Below are positions 5,978 through 25,112 of a stretch of 64,000 bases of DNA, piece after piece (within the stretch, counting starts at the first letter, position 1; each line of letters starts with the position of its first letter). The stretch spans positions 58,674-122,673 of the forward strand of contig JAJYJO010000001.1 of NCBI GenBank assembly GCA_021789435.1, in the 5' to 3' direction. The position numbers and the translations under genes were made by a program. The notes under the pieces are model-generated. The model was given only the letters and a program-made list of their open reading frames with translations. It searched no databases and was not told the DNA's origin. Source of the stretch: Chloroflexota bacterium (GTDB lineage: Bacteria; Chloroflexota; Limnocylindria; Limnocylindrales; CSP1-4).

Positions 5978-6493
5978 GTGCGACCGTCGTGGACCGGCTT
6001 CTTCCCCCGCTTCTACCGCCTGCTGCGGCTGGGCGATCCGCTGATCGCGGCCTGGTGGCGCCGCTTCGGCGTCGGCAACACGATCGGCCTCGAGGTGGTG
6101 GGCCGCCGCAGCGGCCGTCCCCGCCGGCTCTTCCTCGGCCTGCTCCACGTGGAGAGCGTCTTCTACCTCGGCCACCCCAACGGGGCGACGGGTTGGACGC
6201 GCAACCTGGAGGCGGCCGGGACCGGCGAGATCTCCTTCCCGGGGGCCGCGCCGAGGACGGTCCGGGCGGTCCGACTGGCGCCCGGTCCGGAACGTGACCG
6301 GGTGATCCGCTCCACCTGGCGCCAGCATCCGTTCCCCGGCAACGTCATCTACTGGCTGGCCCGCCGGCACGTCGCCGCGGTGGGGGTCTACTACCGCCTG
6401 GAGCCGGTCGATCCGCCCGGGCCCGCGGGTCCGGTCGATCCGCCCGGGCCTGTGGATCCGGCTGCGCCGGTGGATCCGGTCGCGCCGCCCTGA
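5978..6493 (+). CDS. Nitroreductase-family deazaflavin (F420H2)-dependent oxidoreductase (DUF385/PNPOx-like)
   Basis: GNTIGLEVVGRRSGRPRRLFLGLLHVESVFYLGHPNGATGWTRNLEAAGTGEISFPG matches the conserved GxxGRKSGxPRxxPL...NL motif core of this family. GTG start. The C-terminal PVDPPGP repeat tail is uncertain. Confidence 0.65.
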   Translation: MRPSWTGFFPRFYRLLRLGDPLIAAWWRRFGVGNTIGLEVVGRRSGRPRRLFLGLLHVESVFYLGHPNGATGWTRNLEAAGTGEISFPGAAPRTVRAVRLAPGPERDRVIRSTWRQHPFPGNVIYWLARRHVAAVGVYYRLEPVDPPGPAGPVDPPGPVDPAAPVDPVAPP

Positions 6494-6945
6494 CGCGGCT
6501 CCCAGCCATCCGGAGCCAGCTCGAAGCGCTCGAAGACGAAGGCCGGCGACACCGTGCACCCGACCAGGCTCCAGGTGCCGAGCGCGTGCGCCCGCTGCCA
6601 GGCGCCGGCGGGGACGACGGCCTGGGGACGCTCGCCTGCCCGCAGGTCCGGCCCCAGCCGGAGGGTCTCGGTTCGACGGCCGTCGGTCGAGACCGCCAGC
6701 TCCACCGAGCCGCCGGCGTAGAAGTGCCAAGTCTCGGCCGCATCAACGCGATGCCATCGGGAGGCCGGCCCGGCCAGGAGGTAGTAGATGGCACTGCCGG
6801 CGCCCCGCGTCGCGGCCGGCGCGGCGGCGCGCCAGGTCTCGCGGTACCAGCCGCCCTCAGGGTGCGGCTGCAGGTCCAGGAGGGCCACGACCTGCGCCGT
6901 CGACAGGGGATCCGGGGTGGTCCGGCCCGGGCGCCGCGGGCTCAC
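6391..6945 (-). CDS. Cupin-superfamily protein (DUF985-like)
   Basis: TAQVVALLDLQPHPEGGWYRETWR...SAIYYLL...WHFYAGGSVEL...VVPAGAWQRAH matches the cupin_5/DUF985 pattern. The 3' end runs through the shared tandem repeat and overlaps the convergent nitroreductase ORF. Confidence 0.6.
   Translation of the reverse strand: MSPRRPGRTTPDPLSTAQVVALLDLQPHPEGGWYRETWRAAAPAATRGAGSAIYYLLAGPASRWHRVDAAETWHFYAGGSVELAVSTDGRRTETLRLGPDLRAGERPQAVVPAGAWQRAHALGTWSLVGCTVSPAFVFERFELAPDGWEPRQGGATGSTGAAGSTGPGGSTGPAGPGGSTGSRR
6406..6490. repeat. Imperfect tandem repeat (about 25-27-bp unit, ccggtcgatccgcccgggccc...), translated in both convergent ORFs
   Basis: It encodes PVDPPGP repeats on + and GSTGxxG repeats on -. 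Confidence 0.65.
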
Positions 6946-7895
6946 AACCGCGCGATCCGGCGGGCCGCGAGTCGTGGGCCGAAGCGCGGCTCGCGGAGGC
7001 CGCAGGCCTCCAGGAGCCGGATCACGCGCGCCCGCTGGCCGGCCCAGGGCGCCAGCAGCTCGAGCATCCGCGCGTCGTCGCCACGGGGCTCGCCGGCCAG
7101 CAGCCAGCCGACCAGGTCCGGCAGGTGCGCGTCGCCGACGCTCACGGCATCGGCGTCGCCGAAGGCGCGCAGGCCGACCTCGGCCGCCGTCCAGGGTCCG
7201 ATCCCCGGGAGCGCCATCAGGCGGCCCCGGGCCTCGGCCGGCGCCAGGGCCAGCAGGCTCTCCAGGCGGTCGGCCCTGGCGCAGCTCCGGCGCAGCGTCT
7301 CGGCCCGCCGCCGCTCCAGGCCGAGCGGGTGCAGCGCGTAGGAGGGCAGCCCGGCCAGCTCGGCGGCCGAGGGCGGCACCCGCAGGCCGAGCGCGGCCCC
7401 GGGACCGGGAGCCGGCTCGCCCCGGGTCCGCAGGAGAAGCCGGTAGGCCGCCCGCGCCTCGATGCCGGTCACCTTCTGCTCGAGGATCGCCGGGACCAGT
7501 GCCTCGACGACGGCCCGGCTCCGGCCCAGGCGCAGGCCCGGCATCCGGCGGTGAAGGGCCGCCAGGAGCGGGCGGCGGGGGGTGAAGGCCGACGCGTCGT
7601 CCGCCTCGCCGAGGAGGTCCGGTGCCGCCTCCAGGGCCCAGCCGGCGCCGGGTCCCCAGGCGGCGACGCGGACCACGTCGTCACGGAGCTCCGCCCGCTC
7701 GGTGGCGGGACCATCCGGGGTCCGGGTCGCCCGCCAGGCTGCGCCCGGGGAGAGACGGATCGTGGGATCGCCCGTCCCGTGGCGGAGCGGGCCCAGGGTC
7801 AGGACCAGGTCCAGGGGCCGCGTCAGGCGCCAGCTGCGGACGGCCGGGTCGCCGGCCGCGGGAGCGGCGCGCCGGGCGTGGGCGGCACCGAGCAC
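6942..7895 (-). CDS. alkA: DNA-3-methyladenine glycosylase II (AlkA-like; AlkA N-domain + HhH-GPD)
   Basis: ...EQKVTGIEARAAYRLL...LMALPGIGPWTAEV...SVGDAHL contains the HhH-GPD motif with its catalytic Asp region. The GTG start is preceded by GGAG and lies 12 nt downstream of the lyase stop. Confidence 0.7.
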   Translation of the reverse strand: MLGAAHARRAAPAAGDPAVRSWRLTRPLDLVLTLGPLRHGTGDPTIRLSPGAAWRATRTPDGPATERAELRDDVVRVAAWGPGAGWALEAAPDLLGEADDASAFTPRRPLLAALHRRMPGLRLGRSRAVVEALVPAILEQKVTGIEARAAYRLLLRTRGEPAPGPGAALGLRVPPSAAELAGLPSYALHPLGLERRRAETLRRSCARADRLESLLALAPAEARGRLMALPGIGPWTAAEVGLRAFGDADAVSVGDAHLPDLVGWLLAGEPRGDDARMLELLAPWAGQRARVIRLLEACGLREPRFGPRLAARRIARL

Positions 7896-7906: not shown

Positions 7907-9292
7907 TCAGGCGAGCGGCTCGAAGCGAGCCGTGAAGTGGCGCAACCACGGCGCCTGCTCGACGATCCGGTAGCCCGGCAGGGAGCTCGCCCGGGCCGCC
8001 ACCGCCAGGACCACCTCGGCCACGAAGTCGATGTGGCTCTGGGTGTAGGTCCGGCGCGGGATTGCCAGGCGGACCAGCTCCATCTCGGCCGGCAGCTCGG
8101 TCCCGCCGGGCCCGGCGCCGGGCCTGCCGAACATCACCGAGCCGATCTCGACGCCGCGGACGCCGCCCTCCCGGTAGAGCTCCACGGCCAGCGACTGGGC
8201 GGGGTACTGGTCGGGCGCCAGGTGCCGCAGGAGGGCCTTCGCGTCCAGGTAGACGGCGTGGCCGCCGGCCGGCCGGACGAGCGGGATGCCGGCCGCCTCC
8301 ACCTTCTCGGCCAGGTACGCCGTGGAGCGGATGCGGTACTGGAGGTAGAGCGGGTCGACCACCTCGTGAAGTCCCTGGGCGATCGCCTCCAGGTCGTAGC
8401 CGGCCAGCCCGCCGTAGGTCGGAAAGCCCTCGGTCAGGATCAGCAGATTGCGGCAGGCCGCGGCCAGCTTCGCGTCGTTCATCGCCAGGAAGCCGCCGAT
8501 GTTCGCCAGGCCGTCCTTTTTGGCGGACATCGTGCAGCCGTCGGCCAGCGAGAACATCTCTCGCGCGATCTCGCCTGGCGTCCACTCGGCGTAGCCCTCC
8601 TCGCGGGTCTTGACGAACCAGGCGTTCTCGGCGAAGCGGCAGGCGTCGAGGAAGAGCGGGATGCCGTGCCGATCGCAGACGGCGCGGACCGCCCGCAGGT
8701 TGGCCATCGAGACGGGCTGGCCGCCCCCCGAGTTGTTGGTCACGGTGACCATCACCAGGGGGACCCGTTCGCGGCCCACCTCCTCGATCGTCCGTTCCAG
8801 CGCGGCGATGTCCACGTTGCCCTTGAAGGGGGCCAGGAGGGCCGGGTCGTGCCCCTCGGGGCAGAGGAGGTCGCGCGCCTCGCCGCCCTGGTGCTCCACG
8901 TTGGCCCGGGTCGTGTCGAAGTGGGTGTTGTTCGGCACCACGTCGCCGCGGTGGACGGCCACCTCGAAGAGGATCCGCTCCGCGGCCCGGCCCTGGTGGG
9001 TGGGGATCACTTCGGCGAAGCCGGTCAGCTCCGCGACCGCGCCCCGGAAGCGGTAGAAGGAGCGGCTGCCGGCGTAGGACTCATCGCCCATCATCATGCC
9101 GGCCCACTGCCGGCTCGACATCGCGCCCGTCCCGGAGTCGGTGAGCAGGTCGACGATCACCTCGTCGGCCTGCAGGTTGAAGAGGTTGTAGCCGGCCCGG
9201 CGGAGAGCGGCCTCGCGCTGCTCGGCGGTCGGGAAGTCGATCGCCTCGACGCTGTGGATGCGGAACGGCTCGATGATGGTCCGGAACGGCAT
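7907..9292 (-). CDS. Tryptophanase / tyrosine phenol-lyase family beta-eliminating lyase (PLP-dependent)
   Basis: The whole 462 aa aligns with TnaA/TPL: EPFRIHSVE, LLTDSGTGAMS..QWAGMMMGDESYAGS, SAKKDGLANIGGFLAMND, PAQSLAVELY. ATG with GAGGAG upstream. The C-terminus (TYTQSHIDF...RHFTARFEPL) is closer to tryptophanase. Confidence 0.85.
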   Translation of the reverse strand: MPFRTIIEPFRIHSVEAIDFPTAEQREAALRRAGYNLFNLQADEVIVDLLTDSGTGAMSSRQWAGMMMGDESYAGSRSFYRFRGAVAELTGFAEVIPTHQGRAAERILFEVAVHRGDVVPNNTHFDTTRANVEHQGGEARDLLCPEGHDPALLAPFKGNVDIAALERTIEEVGRERVPLVMVTVTNNSGGGQPVSMANLRAVRAVCDRHGIPLFLDACRFAENAWFVKTREEGYAEWTPGEIAREMFSLADGCTMSAKKDGLANIGGFLAMNDAKLAAACRNLLILTEGFPTYGGLAGYDLEAIAQGLHEVVDPLYLQYRIRSTAYLAEKVEAAGIPLVRPAGGHAVYLDAKALLRHLAPDQYPAQSLAVELYREGGVRGVEIGSVMFGRPGAGPGGTELPAEMELVRLAIPRRTYTQSHIDFVAEVVLAVAARASSLPGYRIVEQAPWLRHFTARFEPLA

Positions 9293-9379
9293 GCCACGGC
9301 TCCTCTCGACGGCCGGCGCTTCGGCCCCGGGACGCCGCGCCGAGTGTGCCACGAGGCGTGTCCGTCCGCCGTCCCGCGG

Positions 9380-11359: not shown

Positions 11360-12397
11360 TCAGCGGAGCAGGGGCACGACCGTCCTCGCGAAGCGCTCCA
11401 GGAGGTCGGCCTGGCCGGCCGCCGAGAGGCCGGGCAGGTAGTTCCTGGCCATGACGTGGAGGTCGCCCCCGGCCGCTTCCCGGTAGGCGGCGATGCGGTC
11501 GGCGCAGGCCTCCGGTGAACCGGCGACCGTGGTGGCGCGCAGTCGGTCCGCGACGCCGTCCGGGAGCTCGCCGCGGGGCGGCATCGGCTGGCCCGTCCGG
11601 CGGGCGGAGCGACCCATGTCCAGGTACTTCCACTGCGTGTGCAGGACGAGCTCCCCGAACTCGTCCCATGCGTCGCGTTGTCCCTCCTGGGGGAGCACCG
11701 TCAGGTACGTCGCCAGGGCCAGCGTCGCCGGATCGCGTCCGCTCCGCTCCAGCTCGTCCCGGACGATCGCGACGTCCGCCCGGAACTCGTCCAGCGGCGC
11801 CTGCATCACGAACACGCCGTCGGCGAGCCGCGCGGCGCGCCGGAGTGCCGGCTCGGCTTCCGCGCCCACCCAGATGGCCAGCCGGCCGCGCGCCGGCTTC
11901 GGGCGGATGCTCACCTCCGGTACGTCGTAGATCGGGCCGTGGTGGTGCACGACGTCGTCGGCCGCGGCCTGGCGCAGGATGTCGAAGATCTCCTCGAGGG
12001 CCCGCCCGCGCCGGGCGCGCTCCGCACCGAAGGCGGCGAACTCGACCTTGGACCAGCCCAGGCCCAGGCCCAGGACGAACCGGCCCTCACCGAGCAGGTC
12101 GATGGTCGCCGCCTCCTCGGCCAGCCGGACCGGCTGGTAGAGCGGGGCCAGGGCAACCCCGGTCCCGACCCGGATCCGGCGCGTCACGGCCGTCATCGCC
12201 GCCGCCATCGTGAGCGGCGCCGGCAGGTAGTCGCTGTCGACGAAGTGGTGCTCGGTCGTCCACACGGTGTCCAGGCCGAGCCGCTCGGCCGCCTCCGCCA
12301 GCCGGAGGGCCTCCTGGTAGAGCTCCACCGCGGTCCGCCCGGGCACGGCCGGGTGCCGCTCGCAACTGATCAGCCCGTAGCCGAACGTCAGTGCCAT
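11360..12397 (-). CDS. LLM-class (luciferase-like) flavin/F420-dependent oxidoreductase
   Basis: MALTFGYGLISCE...LGLDTVWTTEHHF...VRLAEEAATIDLLGEGRFVLGLGLGW is the TIM-barrel LLM pattern. ATG with GGAGGAGG 7 nt upstream. Confidence 0.8.
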   Translation of the reverse strand: MALTFGYGLISCERHPAVPGRTAVELYQEALRLAEAAERLGLDTVWTTEHHFVDSDYLPAPLTMAAAMTAVTRRIRVGTGVALAPLYQPVRLAEEAATIDLLGEGRFVLGLGLGWSKVEFAAFGAERARRGRALEEIFDILRQAAADDVVHHHGPIYDVPEVSIRPKPARGRLAIWVGAEAEPALRRAARLADGVFVMQAPLDEFRADVAIVRDELERSGRDPATLALATYLTVLPQEGQRDAWDEFGELVLHTQWKYLDMGRSARRTGQPMPPRGELPDGVADRLRATTVAGSPEACADRIAAYREAAGGDLHVMARNYLPGLSAAGQADLLERFARTVVPLLR

Positions 12398-12590: not shown

Positions 12591-12761
12591 ATGATGACCG
12601 ACCTGGAGACCGAGCAGGCGGACGAGCAGGTCGTGCTGGTTCGCCTGACGCCGGAGGAGCTGGGGCTCGTGCTCGCCGGCCTCCGGCTGATGCTCGACGC
12701 GGAGGACGACCCGGAGACGATCGCCGAGCTGAAGCGGCTGCTGCGCCGGCTGACGAGCTAG
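12591..12761 (+). CDS. Hypothetical 56-aa acidic protein (absent from the supplied ORF track)
   Basis: atgatgacc... preceded by GGAGG. MMTDLETEQADEQVVLVRLTPEELGLVLAGLRLMLDAEDDPETIAELKRLLRRLTS has helical, non-repetitive composition. It overlaps the convergent PPOX gene by 4 nt. Confidence 0.4.
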   Translation: MMTDLETEQADEQVVLVRLTPEELGLVLAGLRLMLDAEDDPETIAELKRLLRRLTS

Positions 12762-13201
12762 CCGCGTTCGGCGACGCGGCCCCAGGCGAGAGCGCGCGTC
12801 GGCTGGATCCGGATCAGCGGCCGCCCCTCCAGCGGCTGCGTCGCGTACTGCGGGTAGCGCTGCCGGAGGGCGGCGACCGCGGCGATGTGGCCCGCCCCGC
12901 CGGGCTCGATCAGGTCGGCCGTGCCTTCGACGCGAAGCCAGGCCAGGTCCGCCCAGTCCTCGGACCAGCGATCGACCAGGAGGGCGACCTGCGGCCGGGC
13001 GAGCACGTCCCGGACGCGGGCCAGCGAGCGGGGATCGAGTCCGCGCTTGGGCTTGAGGTCGAGCGGCGTCCAGATCGCGTCCCCGGCCACCGCGAAGCAG
13101 ACGGGCAGCGGTCGCGGTCGACCGCCTGGGCCGATCGTCGCCAGCACGGCCCGCCGGGCGGCGTCGAGGAACCCGAGGAGCGCGGCGTCCAGGACGGGCA
13201 T
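12758..13201 (-). CDS. PPOX-class (pyridoxamine 5'-phosphate oxidase-like) probable F420-dependent enzyme
   Basis: MPVLDAALLGFLDAARRAVLATIGPGGRPRPLPVCFAVAGDAIWTPLD...LLVDRWSEDWADLAWLRVEGTA matches the split-barrel family pattern (TIGR03618-like). Confidence 0.7.
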   Translation of the reverse strand: MPVLDAALLGFLDAARRAVLATIGPGGRPRPLPVCFAVAGDAIWTPLDLKPKRGLDPRSLARVRDVLARPQVALLVDRWSEDWADLAWLRVEGTADLIEPGGAGHIAAVAALRQRYPQYATQPLEGRPLIRIQPTRALAWGRVAERG

Positions 13202-13408
13202 CGTCGCGAAGCGTACCCTTCCCGAGACGGCCCGGCGCACGCCGGGGCCGCGGCCCGCCCGGCCCGCAGCGACAGGCCGGTCGGCCCTCGACCGGGTGTC
13301 GGGCGCCGCGGCAGAGTCGTACGGCCGCCAGCCCCCCGCATCGGGCCGGCGCGGCCAGTCAGCGATGTCCGCGCCGGGGGCTGCGGGCGTCCGAGGTTGG
13401 TGCGCACC

Positions 13409-14743
13409 GTGGACGTGAAGCGTGTCGTGATCATGGGCGCCGCGGGGCGCGACTTCCACGACTTCAACGTGGTCTACCGCGACGACCCGTCGGTCGAGGT
13501 GGTCGCCTTCACCGCGACACAGATCCCGGGCATCGAGAGCCGACGCTACCCGCCGGAGCTGGCGGGCGAGCGCTACCCGGCCGGGATCCGGATCGTCCCG
13601 GAGGCGGAGCTCGAGCAGCTGATCACCGACGAGCGGATCGACGAGGTCGTCTTCGCCTACAGCGACGTCTCGCACGAGACCGTCATGCACGTTGCGTCGC
13701 GGGTCCTTGCCCGGGGGGCCGACTTCGCCCTGCTCGGCCCGAAGCGGACCATGATCCGCAGCAGCCGGCCGCTCGTGGCCGTCGGGGCGGTGCGCACGGG
13801 GGCCGGCAAGAGCCAGACGACGCGCTACCTGGCCGCCCTGCTGGCGGAGGCCGGCCTGCGGCCGGTCGTCATCCGTCACCCGATGCCCTACGGCGACCTG
13901 GTCGCCCAGCGCGTCCAGCGCTACGCGACCTATGCGGACCTGGACCGGTACGAGACGACGATCGAGGAGCGGGAGGAGTACGAGCCCCACCTTGACGCCG
14001 GGCGGGTCCTCTACGCCGGCGTCGACTACGAGGCGATCCTGCGCCAGGCGGAGACCGAGGCGGACGTGATCCTCTGGGACGGCGGCAACAACGACTTCCC
14101 CTTCTACCGACCCGACCTCTTCGTGGTGGTGGCCGACCCCCTGCGGCCCGGCCACGAGCTCCGCTACCACCCGGGCGAGACCAACCTCCGGATGGCCGAC
14201 GTGGTGATCATCAACAAGATCGACTCGGCGGAGCTGGCGGTCGTCAAGGATGTCCGGGAGGCGATCGAGGACGTCAACCCGGGGGCCCGCATCGTCCTGG
14301 CCCGTTCGGCCCTGGCCCTCACCGGCGACGTCGTCGGCAAGAGCGTGGCGGTGGTCGAGGACGGCCCGACGCTCACCCACGGCGGGATGACCTACGGCGC
14401 GGGCATCGTGGCGGCCCGGCGCTTCATGGCCCGCCAAATCGTGGATCCCCGGCCGTATGCCGTGGGCAGCCTGGCCAAGGTCCTGCGGGCCTATCCGGAC
14501 CTCCAGAGGCTGGTGCCGGCGATGGGCTACGGCGATGCCCAGGTCCGCGACCTGGAAGCGACGCTCAACGCGATGCCGGCCGAGCTGGTCCTCTCGGGGA
14601 CGCCGATCGACCTGACGCGGGTGCTGAAGCTGAACAAGCCGATCGTCCGGGTGCGCTACGAGCTCGAGGAGGTCGAGGGGCCGAGGTTGCGCGAGCTGCT
14701 GCGGCCGATCGTGGCGGCGGCCCGCCAGCCGCACGCGGTCTAG
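13409..14743 (+). CDS. Cyclic 2,3-diphosphoglycerate synthetase-like P-loop protein (cDPGS family, tentative)
   Basis: KRVVIMGAAGRDFHDFNVVYRDD...SDVSHETVMHVASRVLARGADF...VAVGAVRTGAGKSQTT (Walker A)...HPMPYGDL. My recollection of the family assignment is imperfect. Alternative in-frame starts at 13415 and 13433. Confidence 0.5.
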   Translation: MDVKRVVIMGAAGRDFHDFNVVYRDDPSVEVVAFTATQIPGIESRRYPPELAGERYPAGIRIVPEAELEQLITDERIDEVVFAYSDVSHETVMHVASRVLARGADFALLGPKRTMIRSSRPLVAVGAVRTGAGKSQTTRYLAALLAEAGLRPVVIRHPMPYGDLVAQRVQRYATYADLDRYETTIEEREEYEPHLDAGRVLYAGVDYEAILRQAETEADVILWDGGNNDFPFYRPDLFVVVADPLRPGHELRYHPGETNLRMADVVIINKIDSAELAVVKDVREAIEDVNPGARIVLARSALALTGDVVGKSVAVVEDGPTLTHGGMTYGAGIVAARRFMARQIVDPRPYAVGSLAKVLRAYPDLQRLVPAMGYGDAQVRDLEATLNAMPAELVLSGTPIDLTRVLKLNKPIVRVRYELEEVEGPRLRELLRPIVAAARQPHAV

Positions 14744-14801: not shown

Positions 14802-15200
14802 TCAGATCGCGACGCCGCCCATGGCGCGCTCGATCGCCTCCAGGAGTCGCTCCCGGGTGGGCGTGCCGAGCAGCGTGGTCACCCCGTAGATCCCCTCTGA
14901 CTCCGCCCACTCCGGCTCGAGGCCCGGCGAGGTCAGGACGATCGGCTTGTCGGGGTACTGCTCGCGCAGATGCTCGATCAGCTGCGCCCCGCCCCCCGTC
15001 GCTCCGCTGGCCCAGACGTCGTAGACAAGGACATCGGCACGGTCGGCGAGGGCACAGGACATGCCGCGGAGGACGGGGCAGGGACGCCCGGCGCCGGTCG
15101 GCCCGACACACTCCACGACCTCGTACCCGGCGCGGCGGAGCGAATCGACCTCCTGGTCGGCGATGTCCACATCGTGGTGGACGACGAGGACGCGGGTCAT
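14802..15200 (-). CDS. Stand-alone response-regulator receiver (CheY-like) domain protein
   Basis: 132 aa; MTRVLVVHHDVDIADQEV..LRRAGYEVVEC...VLVYDVW...KPIVLTS has the receiver-fold pattern. Its start lies 10 nt downstream of the MT stop. Confidence 0.6.
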   Translation of the reverse strand: MTRVLVVHHDVDIADQEVDSLRRAGYEVVECVGPTGAGRPCPVLRGMSCALADRADVLVYDVWASGATGGGAQLIEHLREQYPDKPIVLTSPGLEPEWAESEGIYGVTTLLGTPTRERLLEAIERAMGGVAI

Positions 15201-17579: not shown

Positions 17580-17918
17580 TCAGTCGGCCTTCACCTGGCG
17601 AAAGCAGTCCGAGCAGTAGACCGGCCGGTCCATCCGCGGCCGGAACGGCACCTGGGCCTGGTTGCCACAGCGGGAGCAGACGACGGCGAAGTACTCGCGG
17701 GCCGGCCGCTCGCCGCCTCGCTCGTAGCCGCGCGGGCCCCCGATCTCCTGGATGTCGGCGCCCGAGTCCCGCGTCGCCCGTCGGCTGGCTCGGCAGCTCG
17801 CGCAGCGCTTCGGCTCGGAGACGAAGCCCTTCTGGGCGTAGTACTCCTGGTCGGCGGCGGAGTGGATGAACTCCACTCCGCAGTCGACGCAGGTCAGCGT
17901 TCGATCCGTATAGGTCAC
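17580..17918 (-). CDS. Zinc-ribbon protein with two zf-trcl-type repeats
   Basis: LTCVDCGVEFIHSAADQEYYAQKGFVSEPKRCASCR and VVCSRCGNQAQVPFRPRMDRPVYCSDCF are two CxxC...CxxC units of the 'probable zinc-ribbon' type. The GTG is preceded by GGGAGGAG. Confidence 0.7.
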   Translation of the reverse strand: MTYTDRTLTCVDCGVEFIHSAADQEYYAQKGFVSEPKRCASCRASRRATRDSGADIQEIGGPRGYERGGERPAREYFAVVCSRCGNQAQVPFRPRMDRPVYCSDCFRQVKAD

Positions 17919-18419
17919 GTTCTCCTCCCCGGTCCACTCGCAGTCTTCGTCGGCGGCCCGTGGAGGGCGGCTTCGGATCGAGGAGCGCCATGGAGGGGGA
18001 GAGCCCGGGTTGCGCCCCAGTTCCGATGCCGTAGGTCCCTGCTGGGGCACACCGGTGAGGGTGCCGAGGATAGCACCGGCGTCCGGCTCGGGCGTTGCAT
18101 GGTCTCGGACATTTCACCGCCGGGGCTGGCTGGGCGTGCGCCGGCCGGCGTCCCGCCGACAGGCCTCGATTCCGGCCCTGCGGTCGGCCCGAGGGCGCCG
18201 CTCCGGCCCCGCGGCCGGCGCCCCGATCCGGGCCCTGCGGTCGGCCGACGGCAGGGGCTGACCCGGGCGAGCCGCGAACCTGTCACAATGCGGCCGGTTC
18301 GGGAGGCGCCCCGGTCCCTCGGCGACCCGCGCCGCCCTCGAGCGCGTCCAGTGGCGAGCGTGGTCGAAGGGAGCGGGGCCCGGCGGTCCGGGACGAGCTG
18401 GAGGTGCCTCGAGGGGCTC

Positions 18420-19586
18420 ATGCTGCGCGTTCTGCATACGGCCGACGTCCATCTGGGGGCTCGCCACACCGACCTGGGCGACCAGGCGGCGGCCCAGCGC
18501 GAGCGCCAGTTCGCCGCCTTCCGCGCGACGATCGACCTGGCCCTCCAGGAGAGGGTCGACCTCTTCCTGATCGCGGGTGACCTCTTCGACTCGAACACCC
18601 AGCCGGCGCGCTCCGTGGAGCGGGTCGCGGCCGAGCTGAAGCGGCTGGCCAACGCGACCATCCGCACGGTGATCATCCCCGGCACCCACGACGTCTACGA
18701 CGGCGCCTCCGTCTATCGCGCCTACGACCTGGCCCGGCTGGCGGGCCTCGCCGCCGGCAGCGACCTCCTGACCGTCCTCACGCCCGAGCGCCCGGAGGTC
18801 CTGCTGCCGAGCCTGGACGCCGTGGTCTACGGCCGCGTCTTCGCCACACGGCGGGCCCCGCGGAGCCCGCTGGTGGACTTCAATGCCGGCGCCGAGGACC
18901 GCGCCACGTGGCGGATCGGCCTGATCCACGGGGCGCTTGCCATCCCCGGCCGGACCGAGGGCGACGAGGTGGTCTTCACCCGCGACGAGATCGCGGCCTC
19001 CGGCCTCGACTACCTGGCCCTGGGACACTGGCACTCCGTCCTGCGGGGGTCGGCGGGCGAAGTCGTCTACGCCTACAGCGGCGCGCCGGAGCCGGTCGCC
19101 GTGGACCAGGATCGGGCCGGCAAGGCGCTCCTGGTGACCTTCGAGCGGCGCGAGGGCGCTCGTCACGTCGAGGTCGAGGAGCGGACGGTGGGGCGGACCC
19201 GGTTCGAGCGGCTGGAGGTTGACGTGGCGACGGTCGCCAGCCAGCCGGCCCTGGTGGAGCGCCTCGCCGCCCTTGCCGATCCCGACCTCGTCCTCGACGT
19301 GCGCCTCTCCGGCCTGCTGCCGGACGGCTTGGACCTGCGACCCGAGGAGGTCGAGACCGAGCTCGTGCCGCGCTTCCTCCGGATCCGGCTGCGGGATGCC
19401 TGGGTGCCGGCCCTGCCGGACGGCCAGCTCCCGCCACCCGACACCATCGCCGGGGCGTTCGTGCGCGGGCTCGAGGCCCGGATCGCCGAGGCGGACGGGT
19501 CCGGCGCCGACGGGGAGGCGGCGGACCTCCGCGAGGTGCTGCGCCTGGGACGCCACCTCCTCGAGGGCCGCGAGGTGACGCTTTGA
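18420..19586 (+). CDS. sbcD: Mre11/SbcD-family DNA repair exonuclease (YhaO-like metallophosphoesterase)
   Basis: MLRVLHTADVHLGARH...LFLIAGDLFD...IPGTHDV...GHWH are the calcineurin-like phosphoesterase motifs I-V. Its stop overlaps the TTG start of the downstream ATPase. Confidence 0.85.
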   Translation: MLRVLHTADVHLGARHTDLGDQAAAQRERQFAAFRATIDLALQERVDLFLIAGDLFDSNTQPARSVERVAAELKRLANATIRTVIIPGTHDVYDGASVYRAYDLARLAGLAAGSDLLTVLTPERPEVLLPSLDAVVYGRVFATRRAPRSPLVDFNAGAEDRATWRIGLIHGALAIPGRTEGDEVVFTRDEIAASGLDYLALGHWHSVLRGSAGEVVYAYSGAPEPVAVDQDRAGKALLVTFERREGARHVEVEERTVGRTRFERLEVDVATVASQPALVERLAALADPDLVLDVRLSGLLPDGLDLRPEEVETELVPRFLRIRLRDAWVPALPDGQLPPPDTIAGAFVRGLEARIAEADGSGADGEAADLREVLRLGRHLLEGREVTL

Positions 19587-21859
19587 GGATCACCCGGCTC
19601 CAGGTCCGCGACCTCAGCCTGCATCGGGACCTGGACCTGGCCCTCGATCCCGGTCTGACCGTCGTCCGCGGGCCCAACGAGGCCGGCAAGTCGACGCTCC
19701 AGCGGGCGCTGGAGCTGGCCCTCTTCCGGAAGGTCACCGCGACCGGTGCCGAGCTGGACGGCCTCCGCCCCTGGGGCGGCGCCGATGATGCCCGGCCGAG
19801 CGTCCGCCTGGAGTTCCTCCAGGAGGAGCTGGACGGGGTCCGGACCGGGCGGCTGGAGAAGGAGTTCCGGGGCGGCAAGGGTCGCGTCCTCCTGGAGCTC
19901 GACGGCGAGCGGATCGCCGACCCGACGCTGGCCGACCAGGCCCTGGCCGAGCTGACCGGGATCCCGACCGAGCCCTTCTTCCGCTCGACGGCCTCCATCC
20001 GCCACCACGAGCTGGACGACCTGGACCGCGACGAGGCCGCGCTCCGCGACCGCCTCCAGGCGTCGATCAGCGGCGGCGACCGCGGCACGTCGCGGGCCAA
20101 GAAGAAGCTCGACGATGCCCTCCGGCTGCTCCGGGCGAAGGGTGACAAGAACCCGGGCCGCCTCAAGGTCGCCGAGTCGGCGGTGAGCCTGGCGGAGGCG
20201 GCCGTCCGGGCCGGCGAGACCGCCCTGGCCCAGCTGGAGCGCGATCGGGACGCGCTGGTCCAGGCCCGGGAGCGCCGGGCACTGGTGGACGCCGACCTCG
20301 GCGAGCGGCGATCCATGCTCGAGAAGGCCCGCCAGGCGGAGCGGCTCTCGGCGGAGCGTGCGGTGGCCCAGGAGCGTTTCGAGCGCTACCGCCAGGCCGT
20401 CACGGTGACGACCGAGATCGACCGCCTCCACGCCAGCCACCCTTCGTCCGAGGCCCTGCCGGTGCTGCGCCAGATCGTGGAACGGCTCCGCAAGCTCGAC
20501 ACGACGATCCGCGAGCTGCGGGCCCAGCTCGGCGACGAGGCCCAGGTGGAGTACCAGATCGAGATCCCGGAGCCGACCTGGCGGCCGACCGCCGTGGCAG
20601 GCATCCTGCTCACGCTGGCCGGCGTGGCCGCCGTGGCCCTCGGGGTCGGGGGTGTCCTGGCCGCCGACCCGACCACGCGGCTGGTCGGGCTGGGGCTCGT
20701 GGCGGCCGGTGCGATCATCTCCTATCTCGCGATCCGGCAGCGCCGGTCCGCCTCCGACCTGCGCCGCCACAAGCAGCTCCGCGACGACCAGATCACGCGC
20801 CGCCTGCGCGGCCGCTCCCAGCTCCAGCAGGAGCTGCGGGAGAAGGAGGCCGACTCGGAGGCGCAGCTGGAGGCACTCGGCCTGGCCGACGTCCCGGCCG
20901 TGGAGGACCTCCTCGGCCGCGAGGAGGCGCACGTTCAGGCGATTGAGAAGCTCCAGGCCCAGCTGGAGGGGCTGGTCGGCCGGGAGCCGGCGGAGACGCT
21001 TCCGCCGCTCCGGGACGCGGCCGCCCTCGAGATCGAGCAGAAGACGGCCGCCCTGGAGGCCCTCGGGCCGATTGCCCGGGAGGCGCGCGCCCGCGAGCGG
21101 CTCGAGGTGGAGGTCCGGGAGGCGGAGGCGGCCCTCGAGCGGGCCCGCGACGACGAGGCGGCGGCTCGCGCGCGGGTCGAGGCGAACACGGTGGACGCCG
21201 AGCAGGTTGCCGGCGAGACGGAGCGGCTGGCGGGCTGGCGCGAGGACCTGGCCGCCCTGCAACGGCGGGCCCGCATCTACGAGCTGACCCTGGCGGCGAT
21301 CGAGACGGCCGAGCAGGCCACGATGCGCTCGGCGACTCGCTACCTGGAGAAGCGAATGCGCGGCGACCTGGCGCGGATCAGCGACGGCCGTTACCGTCGC
21401 GTCCAGGTGGACGACCGGACGCTCGACATCCGGGTCTTTGCGCCGGAGCGCGGCGACTGGGTGGACGTCCGCCAGCTGAGCCAGGGCACCCTTGACCAGG
21501 TCTACCTCTCGGCTCGCCTGGGCCTGGTCCGCCTGGTGACGGAGGACCGCCGGCCGCCGCTGATCTTCGACGACCCGTTCGTGACCTTCGACGGCGCCCG
21601 GGCCGCCCGGGCCATGCACCTGCTGCGGGAGCTCGCGGCCGATTTCCAGGTGATCTACCTGACCTGCTCCGATCGCTACGACGAGCTGGCGGACGCGGTG
21701 GTCGTGCTGCCCGGTCCGACGGCGGTGGACGACGGCCCGGCGGGAGAGGACGGGAAGACCGCGCCCGTCGCGGTGTCGCCCGAGGCGTCGGTGACGACGG
21801 CGGTTCCCGGTCCGGCGGGGGGCGCCGCCGCGGGGGGCGCCCCCGCGGGCCCTGCCTGA
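19583..21859 (+). CDS. sbcC: SbcC/Rad50-like AAA ATPase with long coiled coils and an internal pair of TM helices (YhaN-like)
   Basis: N-terminal Walker A (VVRGPNEAGKST); a central hydrophobic hairpin (AVAGILLTLAGVAAVALGVGGVLAADPTTRLVGLGLVAAGAIISYLAI); C-terminal signature, Walker B and D-loop (LSQGTLDQVYLSARL...PLIFDDPFVTFD). Confidence 0.8.
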   Translation: MRITRLQVRDLSLHRDLDLALDPGLTVVRGPNEAGKSTLQRALELALFRKVTATGAELDGLRPWGGADDARPSVRLEFLQEELDGVRTGRLEKEFRGGKGRVLLELDGERIADPTLADQALAELTGIPTEPFFRSTASIRHHELDDLDRDEAALRDRLQASISGGDRGTSRAKKKLDDALRLLRAKGDKNPGRLKVAESAVSLAEAAVRAGETALAQLERDRDALVQARERRALVDADLGERRSMLEKARQAERLSAERAVAQERFERYRQAVTVTTEIDRLHASHPSSEALPVLRQIVERLRKLDTTIRELRAQLGDEAQVEYQIEIPEPTWRPTAVAGILLTLAGVAAVALGVGGVLAADPTTRLVGLGLVAAGAIISYLAIRQRRSASDLRRHKQLRDDQITRRLRGRSQLQQELREKEADSEAQLEALGLADVPAVEDLLGREEAHVQAIEKLQAQLEGLVGREPAETLPPLRDAAALEIEQKTAALEALGPIAREARARERLEVEVREAEAALERARDDEAAARARVEANTVDAEQVAGETERLAGWREDLAALQRRARIYELTLAAIETAEQATMRSATRYLEKRMRGDLARISDGRYRRVQVDDRTLDIRVFAPERGDWVDVRQLSQGTLDQVYLSARLGLVRLVTEDRRPPLIFDDPFVTFDGARAARAMHLLRELAADFQVIYLTCSDRYDELADAVVVLPGPTAVDDGPAGEDGKTAPVAVSPEASVTTAVPGPAGGAAAGGAPAGPA

Positions 21860-21948: not shown

Positions 21949-22698
21949 ATGCCGGCGCTCGGCGTCGTCCTGCTCTCCCAGTCGCTGGGCCTGCTGCTGG
22001 TGGCGGCCGCGGCGGTCGCGGTGGGGGAGCCGATCCGCTCGGCCGCCGAGCTCGGCTGGGGGATGGCGGCCGGCCTGTCGGGCGCCACCGCCCTGGTGGC
22101 CTTCTACCGCGGTCTCGCCGCCGGGCGGATGGGTCTCGTCGCGCCCGTCGCGGGCGTCCTGGGCGCGGCGATCCCGGTCGCCTTCGGGACGCTCGTCGAA
22201 GGCGCTCCGGCACCCGGCCAGGCCGCCGGCATCGGACTGGCCCTCGTCTCGGTGCTGCTGGTCTCGCGGCCCGACGAGGAGGGTGGCGGCCGGCAGGGGC
22301 TCGGCCTGGCGCTTGCGGCCGGGGCCGGCTTCGGCGGCTTCTTCGTGCTGATCGACCAGGTCGGCACGGCGGGCGTCCTCTGGCCGATCGCCGCCGCCAG
22401 GTTCGCCTCAGTGGGCCTGCTCGGCGGCCTGGTCCTCGTGCTGCGGCCGCCCTGGCGGCCCACGCCGGGGACGCTCCGACCGGTCGTCCTGGCGGGGGTC
22501 CTCGACGCCGGCGGCAACCTGCTCTTCCTGCTGGCCGCCCGCCTCGGCCCGCTCGCGGTGGCGGCCGTCCTCTCGTCGCTCTATCCGGTGACCACCGTGG
22601 TCCTGGCGCGCCTGGTGCTCGGCGAGCGCGTCGCCCGCGTCCACGCCGCGGGGATCGCCCTGGCGGTGGTCGCCATTGCTCTGATCGCCGCGGCGTGA
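21949..22698 (+). CDS. EamA/DMT-family transporter (N-terminus probably incomplete as called)
   Basis: About 9 TM helices. The expected first helix (LGGVGLGLGSALSWGAADFNGGLASRR) is encoded in frame upstream (21862-21948) with no ATG/GTG/TTG. Confidence 0.65.
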   Translation: MPALGVVLLSQSLGLLLVAAAAVAVGEPIRSAAELGWGMAAGLSGATALVAFYRGLAAGRMGLVAPVAGVLGAAIPVAFGTLVEGAPAPGQAAGIGLALVSVLLVSRPDEEGGGRQGLGLALAAGAGFGGFFVLIDQVGTAGVLWPIAAARFASVGLLGGLVLVLRPPWRPTPGTLRPVVLAGVLDAGGNLLFLLAARLGPLAVAAVLSSLYPVTTVVLARLVLGERVARVHAAGIALAVVAIALIAAA

Positions 22699-22769
22699 CG
22701 AAGCGTGGAGCGGGCTCCCGCCGCGGCTGGCGGGCCCGGGCGGCGGCCGCGGTCGGCTAGGCTTGGCTG

Positions 22770-24083
22770 ATGCGCCTGCCGTCCGGTCCGACGGAGAGCG
22801 ACCCGGCGGACCCATCTCCGGTACTCCCCACGCCACCGCGCCCGCGGGCCACGCCGCCGGCTCCTGCCGAGGACTGGCGGCGCCTGCTCGTCCTCTACTG
22901 GGTGACCGCGTTCGTCGAGGGCCTGGGGATGAACCAGGTCTTCGCCTTCCTGCCGCTTCGCCTGGAGGGGATGGCCATGGCCCCCGGCGAGATCCCCCAC
23001 TTCGTCGGGCTCTTCAGCGCCCTGATCTTCGTCTTCGGGCTGCCGGTCGTGCCGCTATGGGGCGTCTGGGCCGACAAGTACAGCCGCAAGGCGGTCATCA
23101 TCCGGAGCTCACTGATCGAGGCCGTGGTCTTCGCGGCGGTCGGGCTGAGCCAGGCGCCTTGGCAGCTGGCCCTGAGCCTGCTGCTGGTGGGATTCCAGCT
23201 CGGCAACACCGGGGTCATGCTGGCGGCTCTGCGCGACGCGACGCCGCTGCCACGGGTCGGCACGGCGATCGCCGTCTTCGGGGCGGCCAGCCCGATCGGG
23301 TTCGCCCTCGGCCCGGCCCTCGGCGGGCTCCTGACCGACGGCCTCCACGCTCCCCTGGCGGCGGTCTTCCTGCTCTCGAGCGCGCTCTCGCTCGCCGTGG
23401 CCGCGCTGGTCGGCCTCGGCTCGCGCGAGGTGCGCCCGGAAGTGGTGCCGGAGGGCCGCGTCCTGGAGCTCGCCTACGGGGCGGTGCGGGGAGTCTTCAC
23501 CGATCCGCGCGTCCGGTGGGTTTTCGTCATCTTCGGGACGGCCTACCTGGCGCGGCAGATGTCGAACCCGTACGTCCCGATCCTGGCCCTCCACGTGCCG
23601 GCCGACGGCGTGGGGCAGGCGACGGCGATCGCCATCGTGACCGGGGTGGCGGCGCTGGCCGGCGCCGCGGTCTCGCCGCTGGCCGGCGGCCTGGGCGACC
23701 GGATCGGCTTCCGGCCCGTCCTGACCGGCGCGCTGCTGTTCGGCGGCGCGGCGCTGGCCACGATGGCCCTGGTGCCGAGCCTGGTGGCGCTCGCCCTGGC
23801 GGCGACGGCCTACGCCGCGTTCGCGGCGGCGATCCAGGCGATGGTCTTCGGGCTGCTGGCGACGGAGGTCCCGGCCGAGCGCCGCTCGGCGACGCTCAAC
23901 CTCGTCCTGCTGCCGCTCTACCTGGCCGGCATCGTCGGGCCGCTGATCGGAGCGATCGTCGTCAGCTTCGGCGAGGTGGCGGTCTTCGGGCTGGCCGGCC
24001 TGGTCCTCTGGCTCGGCGCAGCCGCGGTGCTGCGGTCGCCGGCGCAGGCCGGGACCCGAAGCGCCGAGGCCGCCGGGGGCTGA
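22770..24083 (+). CDS. MFS transporter
   Basis: 437 aa with 12 predicted TM helices and MFS signature regions (GLFSALIFVFGLPVVPLWGVWADKYSRK, ...). Confidence 0.8.
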   Translation: MRLPSGPTESDPADPSPVLPTPPRPRATPPAPAEDWRRLLVLYWVTAFVEGLGMNQVFAFLPLRLEGMAMAPGEIPHFVGLFSALIFVFGLPVVPLWGVWADKYSRKAVIIRSSLIEAVVFAAVGLSQAPWQLALSLLLVGFQLGNTGVMLAALRDATPLPRVGTAIAVFGAASPIGFALGPALGGLLTDGLHAPLAAVFLLSSALSLAVAALVGLGSREVRPEVVPEGRVLELAYGAVRGVFTDPRVRWVFVIFGTAYLARQMSNPYVPILALHVPADGVGQATAIAIVTGVAALAGAAVSPLAGGLGDRIGFRPVLTGALLFGGAALATMALVPSLVALALAATAYAAFAAAIQAMVFGLLATEVPAERRSATLNLVLLPLYLAGIVGPLIGAIVVSFGEVAVFGLAGLVLWLGAAAVLRSPAQAGTRSAEAAGG

Positions 24084-24163
24084 CCGCCCGGAACCGACCG
24101 GGACCGGTCCGACCGGGGGGGCTCGGGCCGGGCCGCCCAGGCGTCGGGCAGCGCGATCGAACG

Positions 24164-24421
24164 TCAGCGGCGACGGTCCGGCTCGGTCGCGGCCAGGACC
24201 AGGCGGACGAGGACCGCGCCGAGGAAGGCGACGACGATCGCACCGGTGAAGCCCTGGGCGTCGCCGAGGTGGAGCTGTCGCGCCAGGAAGCCGCCGAGGA
24301 GCCCGCCCAGGATGCCGATCAGGACGTTGGCGAGGCAGCCGCGCGGACGATCGTCATGGACGACGATCCCCGAGAGCCAGCCGGCGACGAAGCCGACGAC
24401 GATCCATCCGATGGGCCCCAT
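24164..24421 (-). CDS. GlsB/YeaQ/YmgE-family (transglycosylase-associated) small membrane protein
   Basis: MGPIGWIVVGFVAGWLSGIVV...NVLIGILGGLLGGFLARQL has the typical family pattern. Confidence 0.7.
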   Translation of the reverse strand: MGPIGWIVVGFVAGWLSGIVVHDDRPRGCLANVLIGILGGLLGGFLARQLHLGDAQGFTGAIVVAFLGAVLVRLVLAATEPDRRR

Positions 24422-24550
24422 ATCCAGCACGAACCGATTCCTCCACCGCGTTCCCTCGGGGCGGATGATACGGGAGCCTGCGGACGGCGCGCCGGGCGCG
24501 GGGGCCGGACCGCGCGGAGGCCGGGCGGCGCGGAGACGGCGCCCCTACAG

Positions 24551-24577
24551 CGCCAGCGGGGCGGCGCCCCGCTGGCG
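24551..24577. terminator. GC-rich hairpin (11-bp stem, 5-nt loop) downstream of the EVE-like gene
   Basis: cgccagcgggg-cggcg-ccccgctggcg. There is no U-tract, as is usual in high-GC genomes. Confidence 0.4.
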
Positions 24578-24657
24578 AAGAGCGGACGCACCGGCGCGCG
24601 GTGGGGACCGCAAGGAGGCGCGCCGCCGACGGCCGTGGCGACCGGGCGAGCCCTCGA

Positions 24658-25112
24658 TCAGGCCGGCGCCCGTTCCGAGGCACGGCGAAGGGCGGCCTCC
24701 AGGAGGTCGGCGTCGGCGTCGCCCAGCTCGTGCACGTTGCCCTGGAAGGCAAGCGTCCAGTGCTCCGGCGGCCAGCGCCGCGCGTACTCCATCTGGCGCG
24801 CGAGCGGCTCGGCCGGGACCGCTCGTGACGGCTCGAGCGCGACCAGCGGCTCCGTCGGGAAGCGCCAGGGGTAGTCCTCCTCGGGATGCGAATCCGAGGT
24901 CCAGAGGGTTCGTGGGACTCGAACGGGGAGCCCGTCACGCGCAGGGCGGCCGCGACCGCCTTCTGCCCGGTGACGTACAGGAAGACGCGATCGCCGGGCG
25001 CCACGCGCTCCCACTTCCGACGGTGCCGGCGTTTCATCCCGGCCCGGGTCCAGCCGATCCGGGCGGTCTTCTCGAGGTTCTCCGGGGAGCTCACGAGCAG
25101 CCAGTTGGTCAT
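24658..25112 (-). pseudogene. PUA/EVE-like hypothetical protein, apparently frameshifted near 24900-24945
   Basis: N-terminal frame: MTNWLLVSSPENLEKTARIGW...VFLYVTGQKAVAAALRVTGSPFESHEP (ATG 25112, GGAG upstream). It continues in a second frame: RTLWTSDSHPEEDYPWRFPTEPLVALEP...HWTLAFQGNVHEL...* ending at 24658. Confidence 0.45.

Follow-up and report, generated by a model that had tools for sequence, protein, structure and literature searches.

A conserved P-loop gene in a GC-rich Chloroflexota window

The stretch of DNA analyzed here, called the window throughout, comprises 64 kb of contig JAJYJO010000001.1 from a Chloroflexota bacterium. At 13409..14743 on the plus strand (stop codon included) it carries a gene for a 444-amino-acid (aa) homologue of ArcE, the arginine synthetase or ATP-forming arginine deiminase. 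The GC content is 70–78% throughout the window and long open reading frames (ORFs) occur in every frame. Because the closest homologues of this protein, found in Candidatus Limnocylindrales metagenome-assembled genomes (MAGs), are 87–88% identical to it, and thousands more are 60–79% identical, the ORF is, judged from this conservation, a true gene and not a chance product of high GC content. The GTG start at 13409 lies 12 nt 3' of a GAGG sequence, and further in-frame GTG codons at 13400 and 13415 leave the start uncertain by 2–3 codons. Neither a sigma-70-like promoter nor an intrinsic terminator was found around the gene, no second arcE copy was found in the window, and the window as a whole returned no Rfam match. 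A 658-aa antisense ORF at 12758-14734 was considered and rejected as a GC-rich shadow ORF that is genic in its 3' part alone (12758-13201, encoding the PPOX enzyme described below).

Translation of the ORF contains every motif that the preliminary description of this DNA had quoted for it, including IMGAAGRDFHDFN at residues 8–20, SDVSHETVMH...ARGADF, and RHPMPYGD at residues 156–163. The N-terminal glycine-rich motif, GAAGRDFHDFN (residues 10–20; 13436..13468, plus strand), contains the family-invariant residues G10, G13, R14, D15, and H17; it is found in Thermococcales, crenarchaeal, and bacterial members and may serve in substrate or phosphate binding. The Walker A motif or P-loop, GAVRTGAGKS (residues 126–135; 13784..13813, plus strand), includes the invariant residues T130, G131, G133, and K134, and has the ArcE-type form [R/K]-T-G-x-G-K-S as opposed to the G-K-R-x-G-K-T of cyclic 2,3-diphosphoglycerate (cDPG) synthetase, cDPGS. 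A Walker B-like strand and loop is formed by ILWDGGNND (residues 221–229; 14069..14095, plus strand), in which N228 is invariant and conservation is 90% or more at W223, D224, G225, G226, N227, and D229; in a profile alignment this segment pairs with VIMEGSGAA of M. fervidus cDPGS. The NKxD-like base-pocket motif NKID (residues 269–272; 14213..14224, plus strand) pairs with T302-M-C-E305 of the same enzyme. In the C-terminal domain, the motif VEDGPTLTHGG (residues 316–326; 14354..14386, plus strand) contains the invariant G325, and its residues E317, D318, P320, T323, and H324 are conserved at 90% or above.

The window protein keeps all 27 of the 27 invariant columns in a 30-sequence alignment that spans Thermococcales, Crenarchaeota, Asgard archaea, and bacteria. 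Across 292 family members the [R/K]TGxGKS P-loop, the N-terminal GA[AG]GRDFHxFN motif, and the WDGGNND block are constant. The NKxD motif is present in 118 of 119 close homologues, and Crenarchaeota mostly have TKxS at this position.

Probable identification as a bacterial ArcE orthologue

The arginine synthetase ArcE is known from TK2200 of Thermococcus kodakarensis (Michimori, Yokooji & Atomi, PNAS 2024, PMC11032458). TK2200 reversibly catalyzes L-arginine + ADP + Pi <-> L-citrulline + ATP + NH3, is specific for L-arginine and free ammonia, and has an equilibrium constant of about 10 towards citrulline; its preferred nucleotide is ADP, with relative activities of 38% for CDP, 13% for UDP, and 8.4% for GDP (PMC11032458). 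Together with ArcB (ornithine carbamoyltransferase, OTC) and ArcC (carbamate kinase, CK), the enzyme allows two ATP to be gained per arginine. It was discovered through its co-occurrence with arcC in genomes without arcA, and its homologues, some of which adjoin arcB or arcC, had until then been regarded as hypothetical proteins or putative GTPases (PMC11032458). In its own genome TK2200 is unlinked to TK0871 and TK2158. A 2026 follow-up by Michimori et al. showed the pathway to be a source of carbamoyl phosphate in T. kodakarensis (PMC13260591).

Sequence comparison, gene context in relatives, and fold make it very probable that the window protein is an ArcE orthologue from a bacterium. A protein from Thermococcus peptonophilus (P0525, 448 aa) is 64% identical and 79% similar to the window protein over 430 residues, with 2 gaps. 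The first 11 residues of P0525, MAEKKKKRVLI, and its last 8, KNCEKLKK, are exactly what the primers dTK2200inF and dTK2200inR encode; these anneal at either end of the TK2200 coding region (Supplementary Table 2, PMC13260591). P0525 belongs to a 90%-identity cluster of 201 Thermococcales sequences (Thermococcus and Palaeococcus), and the representative of this cluster, P0403, is 62% identical to the window protein. These Thermococcales proteins, which two earlier homology searches had missed, were found after translation of the primers, with the fragment P0249 (C-terminus KNCEKFKK) as the query. Identity is 62–64% to the homologues of P. furiosus, P. horikoshii, T. litoralis, T. chitonophagus, and Palaeococcus, and 52% and 51% to those of Hyperthermus butylicus and Pyrodictium occultum, respectively; Hyperthermus and Pyrodictium are both named as arcE-carrying genera in the ArcE paper (PMC11032458). 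The homologues are annotated as 'predicted GTPase' or 'hypothetical', which matches the annotation history given there. From the 64% identity and the full conservation of the invariant residues, we infer that the window protein would catalyze the TK2200 reaction. The preliminary description had called the function of such homologues unclear, a statement that the 2024 work (PMC11032458) supersedes.

Several points weigh against this assignment. The function is transferred to this bacterial protein at 62–64% identity from an archaeal clade. The link to TK2200 is one step removed, running through a protein of the same genus with identical termini and through the 90% cluster, and T. kodakarensis is absent from the 15 members listed of the 201 in that cluster. 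A tblastn search of the 64-kb window found no OTC, CK, or arginyl-tRNA synthetase (ArgRS), so the local context lends no support. The phosphoryl-isourea mechanism set out below is our own proposal and is not taken from PMC11032458 or PMC13260591.

Linkage of arcE to carbamate kinase and ornithine carbamoyltransferase in relatives

We compared the window with 83 other arcE loci, in which all ORFs were clustered without prior assumptions and the resulting groups were confirmed with hidden Markov models built from the clusters and with NCBIfam. CK (TIGR00746, 376 bits) was encoded nearby on the same strand at 15 of the 83 loci, and directly downstream at 14 of those 15. OTC (TIGR00658, 342–380 bits) lay downstream on the same strand at 13 loci, and both partners were present in the order arcE-arcC-arcB at five. 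In total, linkage to CK and/or OTC was observed at 23 of the 83 loci, from at least eight phyla. These two were the only neighbours that recurred across phyla; other conserved neighbours, including ArgRS, were limited to Anaerolineae. The loci of the nearest relatives (L001, L003, and L004, 75–77% identical) pair arcE with OTC and not with CK, and the OTC gene starts no more than 16 bp past the arcE stop codon. A homologue on a haloarchaeal megaplasmid (59% identity) adjoins an annotated arcC.

A protein of 766 aa (P0126, L084:134-2434) consists of a CK (NF009007, 314 bits) fused to a complete ArcE domain. It is encoded on a single 2.8-kb contig, where an assembly or frameshift artefact is possible, and is only weakly suggestive of a CK-ArcE link.

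At 13 Chloroflexota loci, mostly from Anaerolineae, arcE is preceded on its own strand by an ArgRS gene (argS) that ends 7–180 bp upstream, except at one locus where the distance is 541 bp. These loci are L010, L011, L016, L017, L024, L027, L043, L046, L047, L053, L067, L078, and L081, with arcE at about 6001-7300 in most. The linkage is not mentioned in the main texts of PMC11032458 and PMC13260591. The adjacency may reflect synteny inherited within one class, or an arginine-supplying role.

Local neighbourhood of arcE in the window

The genes next to arcE in the window are of other kinds. On the minus strand lie an LLM-class oxidoreductase (11360-12397; Pfam Bac_luciferase), which matches the F420-dependent model TIGR03619 at 173.6 bits against a cutoff of 166.9, and a PPOX-class enzyme (12758-13201; PNPOx_N), which matches the F420-dependent model TIGR03668 at 124.7 bits against a cutoff of 119.15. 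A 56-aa acidic ORF (12591-12761, plus strand) has no family match; it is convergent with the PPOX gene and overlaps its 3' end by 4 nt. On the other side of arcE and convergent with it is a 132-aa ORF (14802-15200, minus strand) with a receiver-domain-like sequence and no Pfam or NCBIfam match. A methyltransferase gene is also found downstream of arcE. The 56-aa and 132-aa ORFs are putative genes; nothing corresponding to either occurs at the 83 other loci, and the 56-aa ORF likewise has no Pfam match.

The LLM, PPOX, and 56-aa neighbours are as the preliminary description had given them, and its recognition of the flanking enzymes as F420-type was correct. We considered a functional tie between arcE and the F420-class neighbours and rejected it: the LLM, PPOX, 56-aa, and 132-aa neighbours never recur beside arcE in the 83 loci, and they are divergent from or convergent with it.

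Farther downstream, the window from 17580 to 21859 is syntenic with L001:14425-17344, in an arcE locus whose ArcE is 77% identical. The shared segment contains a zinc-ribbon gene (minus strand), an SbcD-like Metallophos gene (about 18300-19586, plus strand), and an SbcC-like AAA_23 gene (19583-21859, plus strand). In L001 OTC directly follows arcE, and the window is without that gene. Since L001 has the shared downstream genes as well as OTC after arcE, the OTC gene appears to have been lost or moved from this position in the source genome.

Two features lie outside this neighbourhood. The AT skew reaches -0.35 in the 2-kb bin 22001-24000, compared with about +/-0.1 elsewhere, and this bin coincides with a 703-aa ORF at 22763-24874 (plus strand). 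By eye, a 481-aa ORF at 7907-9352 (minus strand) has the look of a beta-eliminating lyase of the tryptophanase/tyrosine phenol-lyase type.

Fold of the protein and its remote relation to cDPGS

No Pfam-A or NCBIfam (release 20) model covers the ArcE family. The sole Pfam match at threshold is PF02492 (cobW/HypB/UreG), which covers 61 residues (236–296) and scores 20.8 bits against a cutoff of 20.7. When the single sequence was searched against the PDB with phmmer, 9sxb was matched with an E-value of 1.3e-7 and M. fervidus cDPGS, 8oru, with an E-value of 0.07, the latter over residues 216–326 only. A profile built from 24 family sequences again returned cDPGS structures as the best matches (2e-19 and 6.5e-15), and cDPG synthetases and HypB were the only sequence relatives in the PDB. 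The AlphaFold2 model, computed from the family alignment, has a predicted local distance difference test score of 94 and a predicted template-modelling score of 0.92. Its best Foldseek match is M. fervidus cDPGS (E 1.7e-18, 16% identity in the structural alignment), followed by LpxK, 4EHY (E 3e-9), with HypB among the weaker fold matches. The AlphaFold model of TK2200 has been superposed on the same LpxK structure, and low similarity to cDPGS was reported (PMC11032458). Judged from profile and predicted fold, the relation to cDPGS is real but remote, at the level of the superfamily.

That the protein is a genuine cDPG synthetase, making the thermoprotectant cDPG in a bacterium, was the identity suggested by the resemblance noted in the preliminary description, and we give it only a minute chance. 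The solved cDPGS chains are its best matches in the PDB, and its homologues are named 'cyclic 2,3-diphosphoglycerate synthase' at NCBI; the resemblance thus stands as a distant P-loop relation, but at 16% identity, and the sequence blocks once quoted as cDPGS-like are ArcE signatures. The catalytic residues on which the preliminary description wished this identity to be judged are not conserved. In cDPGS, K145 and R146 of the P-loop bind 2,3-diphosphoglycerate (2,3-DPG) and stabilize both transition states, E45 (with K46), which the partner subunit contributes from its N-terminal domain, contacts 2,3-DPG, and T150, D208, E305, and others bind Mg2+ or the nucleotide, E305 contacting the adenosine (PMC10690619). 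The profile alignment pairs G142-T-G-K145-R146-I-G-K149-T150 of cDPGS with A127-V-R129-T130-G131-A-G133-K134-S135, replacing K145 and R146 with T130 and G131; E45 falls in a 4-residue insertion (GGTE) that has no counterpart in the ArcE family, in a region where the alignment is of low confidence. The recurrent neighbours of the family are arcC and arcB, and 2-phosphoglycerate kinase is not among them (no explicit model of this kinase was run). The nearest relatives come from Limnocylindria/Chloroflexota MAGs, and cDPG has been reported solely from hyperthermophilic methanogens (PMC10690619). The RefSeq/PGAP name is borne by ArcE-family proteins in general (P0403, P0521-P0534, and WP_338918005.1 at L083:7001-8341), including nearly all Thermococcales proteins of the TK2200 clade, and it carries no weight because that clade holds the characterized arginine synthetase. 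As RefSeq applies the name to the TK2200 clade, the earlier cDPGS label mirrors a database misnomer.

A G3E-type GTPase metallochaperone resembling CobW, HypB, or UreG is what the borderline PF02492 match, the canonical NKID, and the presence of HypB among the weaker sequence and fold matches might suggest, and we consider this very unlikely as well. It is the NKID motif that accounts for both the 'predicted GTPase' label, which we take to be COG2403 (a literature search for 'COG2403' gave no match), and the borderline cobW match, which is limited to residues 236–296. The protein has no cysteine at all, and therefore no CxCC-type metal site, and the additional N-terminal domain and the C-terminal domain are common to cDPGS and ArcE and not to G3E proteins. 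An identical INKID is found in Thermococcales ArcE proteins, the TK2200 cluster among them, and TK2200 prefers ADP, so the motif does not establish GTP use. On the same ground, we rejected NKxD as the mark of a GTP-specific bacterial clade. An ArcE-family enzyme that has diverged to another guanidino or ureido substrate, or that is tied to the flanking F420-dependent enzymes, is improbable, if less far-fetched: the OTC partner of the nearest relatives is missing here and two F420-class oxidoreductases adjoin the gene, but all family-invariant residues are kept at 64% identity to the characterized clade, and the surrounding neighbours, on the other strand or convergent, do not recur next to arcE in the 83 other loci. 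We therefore retain the assignment of the protein as an ArcE orthologue.

Proposed mechanism and direction of the ArcE reaction

A mechanism for the ArcE orthologue can be suggested from its fold, from the two-step scheme proposed for cDPGS (PMC10690619), and from P-loop amidoligases of the CobB-CobQ, dethiobiotin synthetase, and CTP synthase types, some of which are among the weak profile and Foldseek matches. The nucleotide would be held by the P-loop (RTGAGKS) together with Mg2+. For arginine synthesis, ATP would donate its gamma-phosphate to the ureido oxygen of citrulline; the resulting O-phosphoryl-isourea would then lose phosphate to an attack by ammonia, which would create the guanidinium group. 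For arginine breakdown, the guanidinium carbon would be attacked by phosphate, ammonia would leave, and ADP would take up the phosphoryl group.

We also considered whether ArcE is anabolic in this aerobic-type, high-GC, Limnocylindria-like bacterium, making arginine from citrulline, NH3, and ATP in a single ammonia-dependent step that replaces or supplements ArgG/ArgH. An anabolic ArcE route has been raised, as no more than a possibility, for a few organisms without ArgG/ArgH (PMC11032458). The contexts that bear on this idea are the absence of the OTC partner here, the presence of OTC without CK in the nearest relatives, and the argS-arcE pairs of Anaerolineae; we regard it as tentative and rather unlikely. 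If true, this would be the first example of the route from a bacterium. The varied contexts of the gene (arcE-arcC-arcB, arcE with OTC only, argS-arcE, and solitary as in the window) hint that both directions are used in different lineages.

Distribution and significance of the family

The preliminary description had supposed bacterial homologues to be uncommon; the ArcE family is instead very common. The first homology search returned at least 8000 homologue candidates. Among representatives clustered at 50% identity, an exhaustive HMMER scan gave 3740 matches at E <= 1e-3, of which 648 reached E <= 1e-30, and a single peptide pattern places the family in at least 597 GTDB species-representative genomes. 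Bacterial carriers include Chloroflexota, Acidobacteriota, Actinomycetota, Bacillota, Bacteroidota, and WOR-3, among others, and archaeal carriers include Thermoplasmatota, Bathyarchaeia, and Heimdallarchaeota, typically with about 60% identity to the window protein. The ArcE paper (PMC11032458) had already listed bacterial arcE carriers, among them Chloroflexi, Actinomycetota (Intrasporangium), Acidobacteria, and Synechocystis.

One metagenomic homologue (P0226, 806 aa, the record truncated N-terminally) carries an intein with matches to Pfam LAGLIDADG_3 and Intein_splicing. The intein splits the Walker A motif between Lys and Ser, and the extein resumes with S-T-V-C-R after ...HN, an arrangement typical of catalytic P-loop inteins.

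The gene in the window thus adds another member to a widespread family, the function of which has been known since 2024; it is an ordinary find that corrects a common database mislabel. Because the RefSeq cDPGS name covers the ArcE family, including the clade of a proven arginine synthetase, genome-based claims of 'thermoprotectant cDPG synthesis' in bacteria and non-methanogenic archaea are probably wrong. An ArcE from a mesophilic soil or freshwater Chloroflexota bacterium would offer a test of ATP-conserving arginine/citrulline interconversion outside the hyperthermophiles.

Comparison with known enzymes

The window protein shares with LpxK (the tetraacyldisaccharide-1-phosphate 4'-kinase of A. 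aeolicus, 4EHY) an atypical P-loop kinase core, with a TM-score of 0.66 on the length of the target. Identity is 12–14%. LpxK is a lipid kinase, membrane-associated and acting on an unrelated substrate, and is without the N-terminal domain of ArcE and cDPGS. In the ATP-dependent SIMIBI-class amidoligases, also P-loop enzymes, a carbonyl or carboxyl oxygen is first phosphorylated, and the phosphate then gives way to a nitrogen nucleophile; examples are the synthetase domain of CTP synthase, dethiobiotin synthetase, and CobB/CobQ. Their similarity to the window protein is at the superfamily level only (E about 1e-2 to 1e-4), and they differ in domain architecture and substrates. The nearest solved structure is that of cDPGS (M. 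fervidus, PDB 8ORK/8ORU; 9SXB), which likewise has an N-terminal alpha/beta domain ahead of an LpxK-like P-loop domain. The two probably have parallel chemistry as well: the gamma-phosphoryl group would pass to a substrate oxygen, and Pi would then be displaced. The two nevertheless differ in the P-loop (GKRxGKT in cDPGS, RTGxGKS here), in the base pocket (TMCE in cDPGS, NKID here), and in substrate, taxonomic range, and gene neighbours.

Arginine and citrulline are also interconverted by enzymes of unrelated folds. Argininosuccinate synthetase and lyase (ArgG/ArgH) take their nitrogen from aspartate and convert ATP to AMP and PPi, in contrast to the free NH3 and the ADP/ATP couple of ArcE. 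Arginine deiminase (ArcA) has the same ArcB and ArcC partners as ArcE, but hydrolyzes arginine irreversibly and conserves no ATP (see also PMC11032458). Compared with the ArcE of T. kodakarensis, the window protein belongs to a bacterial host that is very GC-rich (about 75%) and presumably mesophilic, and its gene has neither arcB nor arcC with it in the window. The two proteins are nonetheless collinear over their full length, as judged from the 62–64% identity to the Thermococcales clade. They have in common the LpxK-like P-loop core and the GAAGRDFHxFN, RTGxGKS, WDGGNND, INKID, and EDGPTLTHGG motifs; arcB/arcC linkage is seen in relatives.

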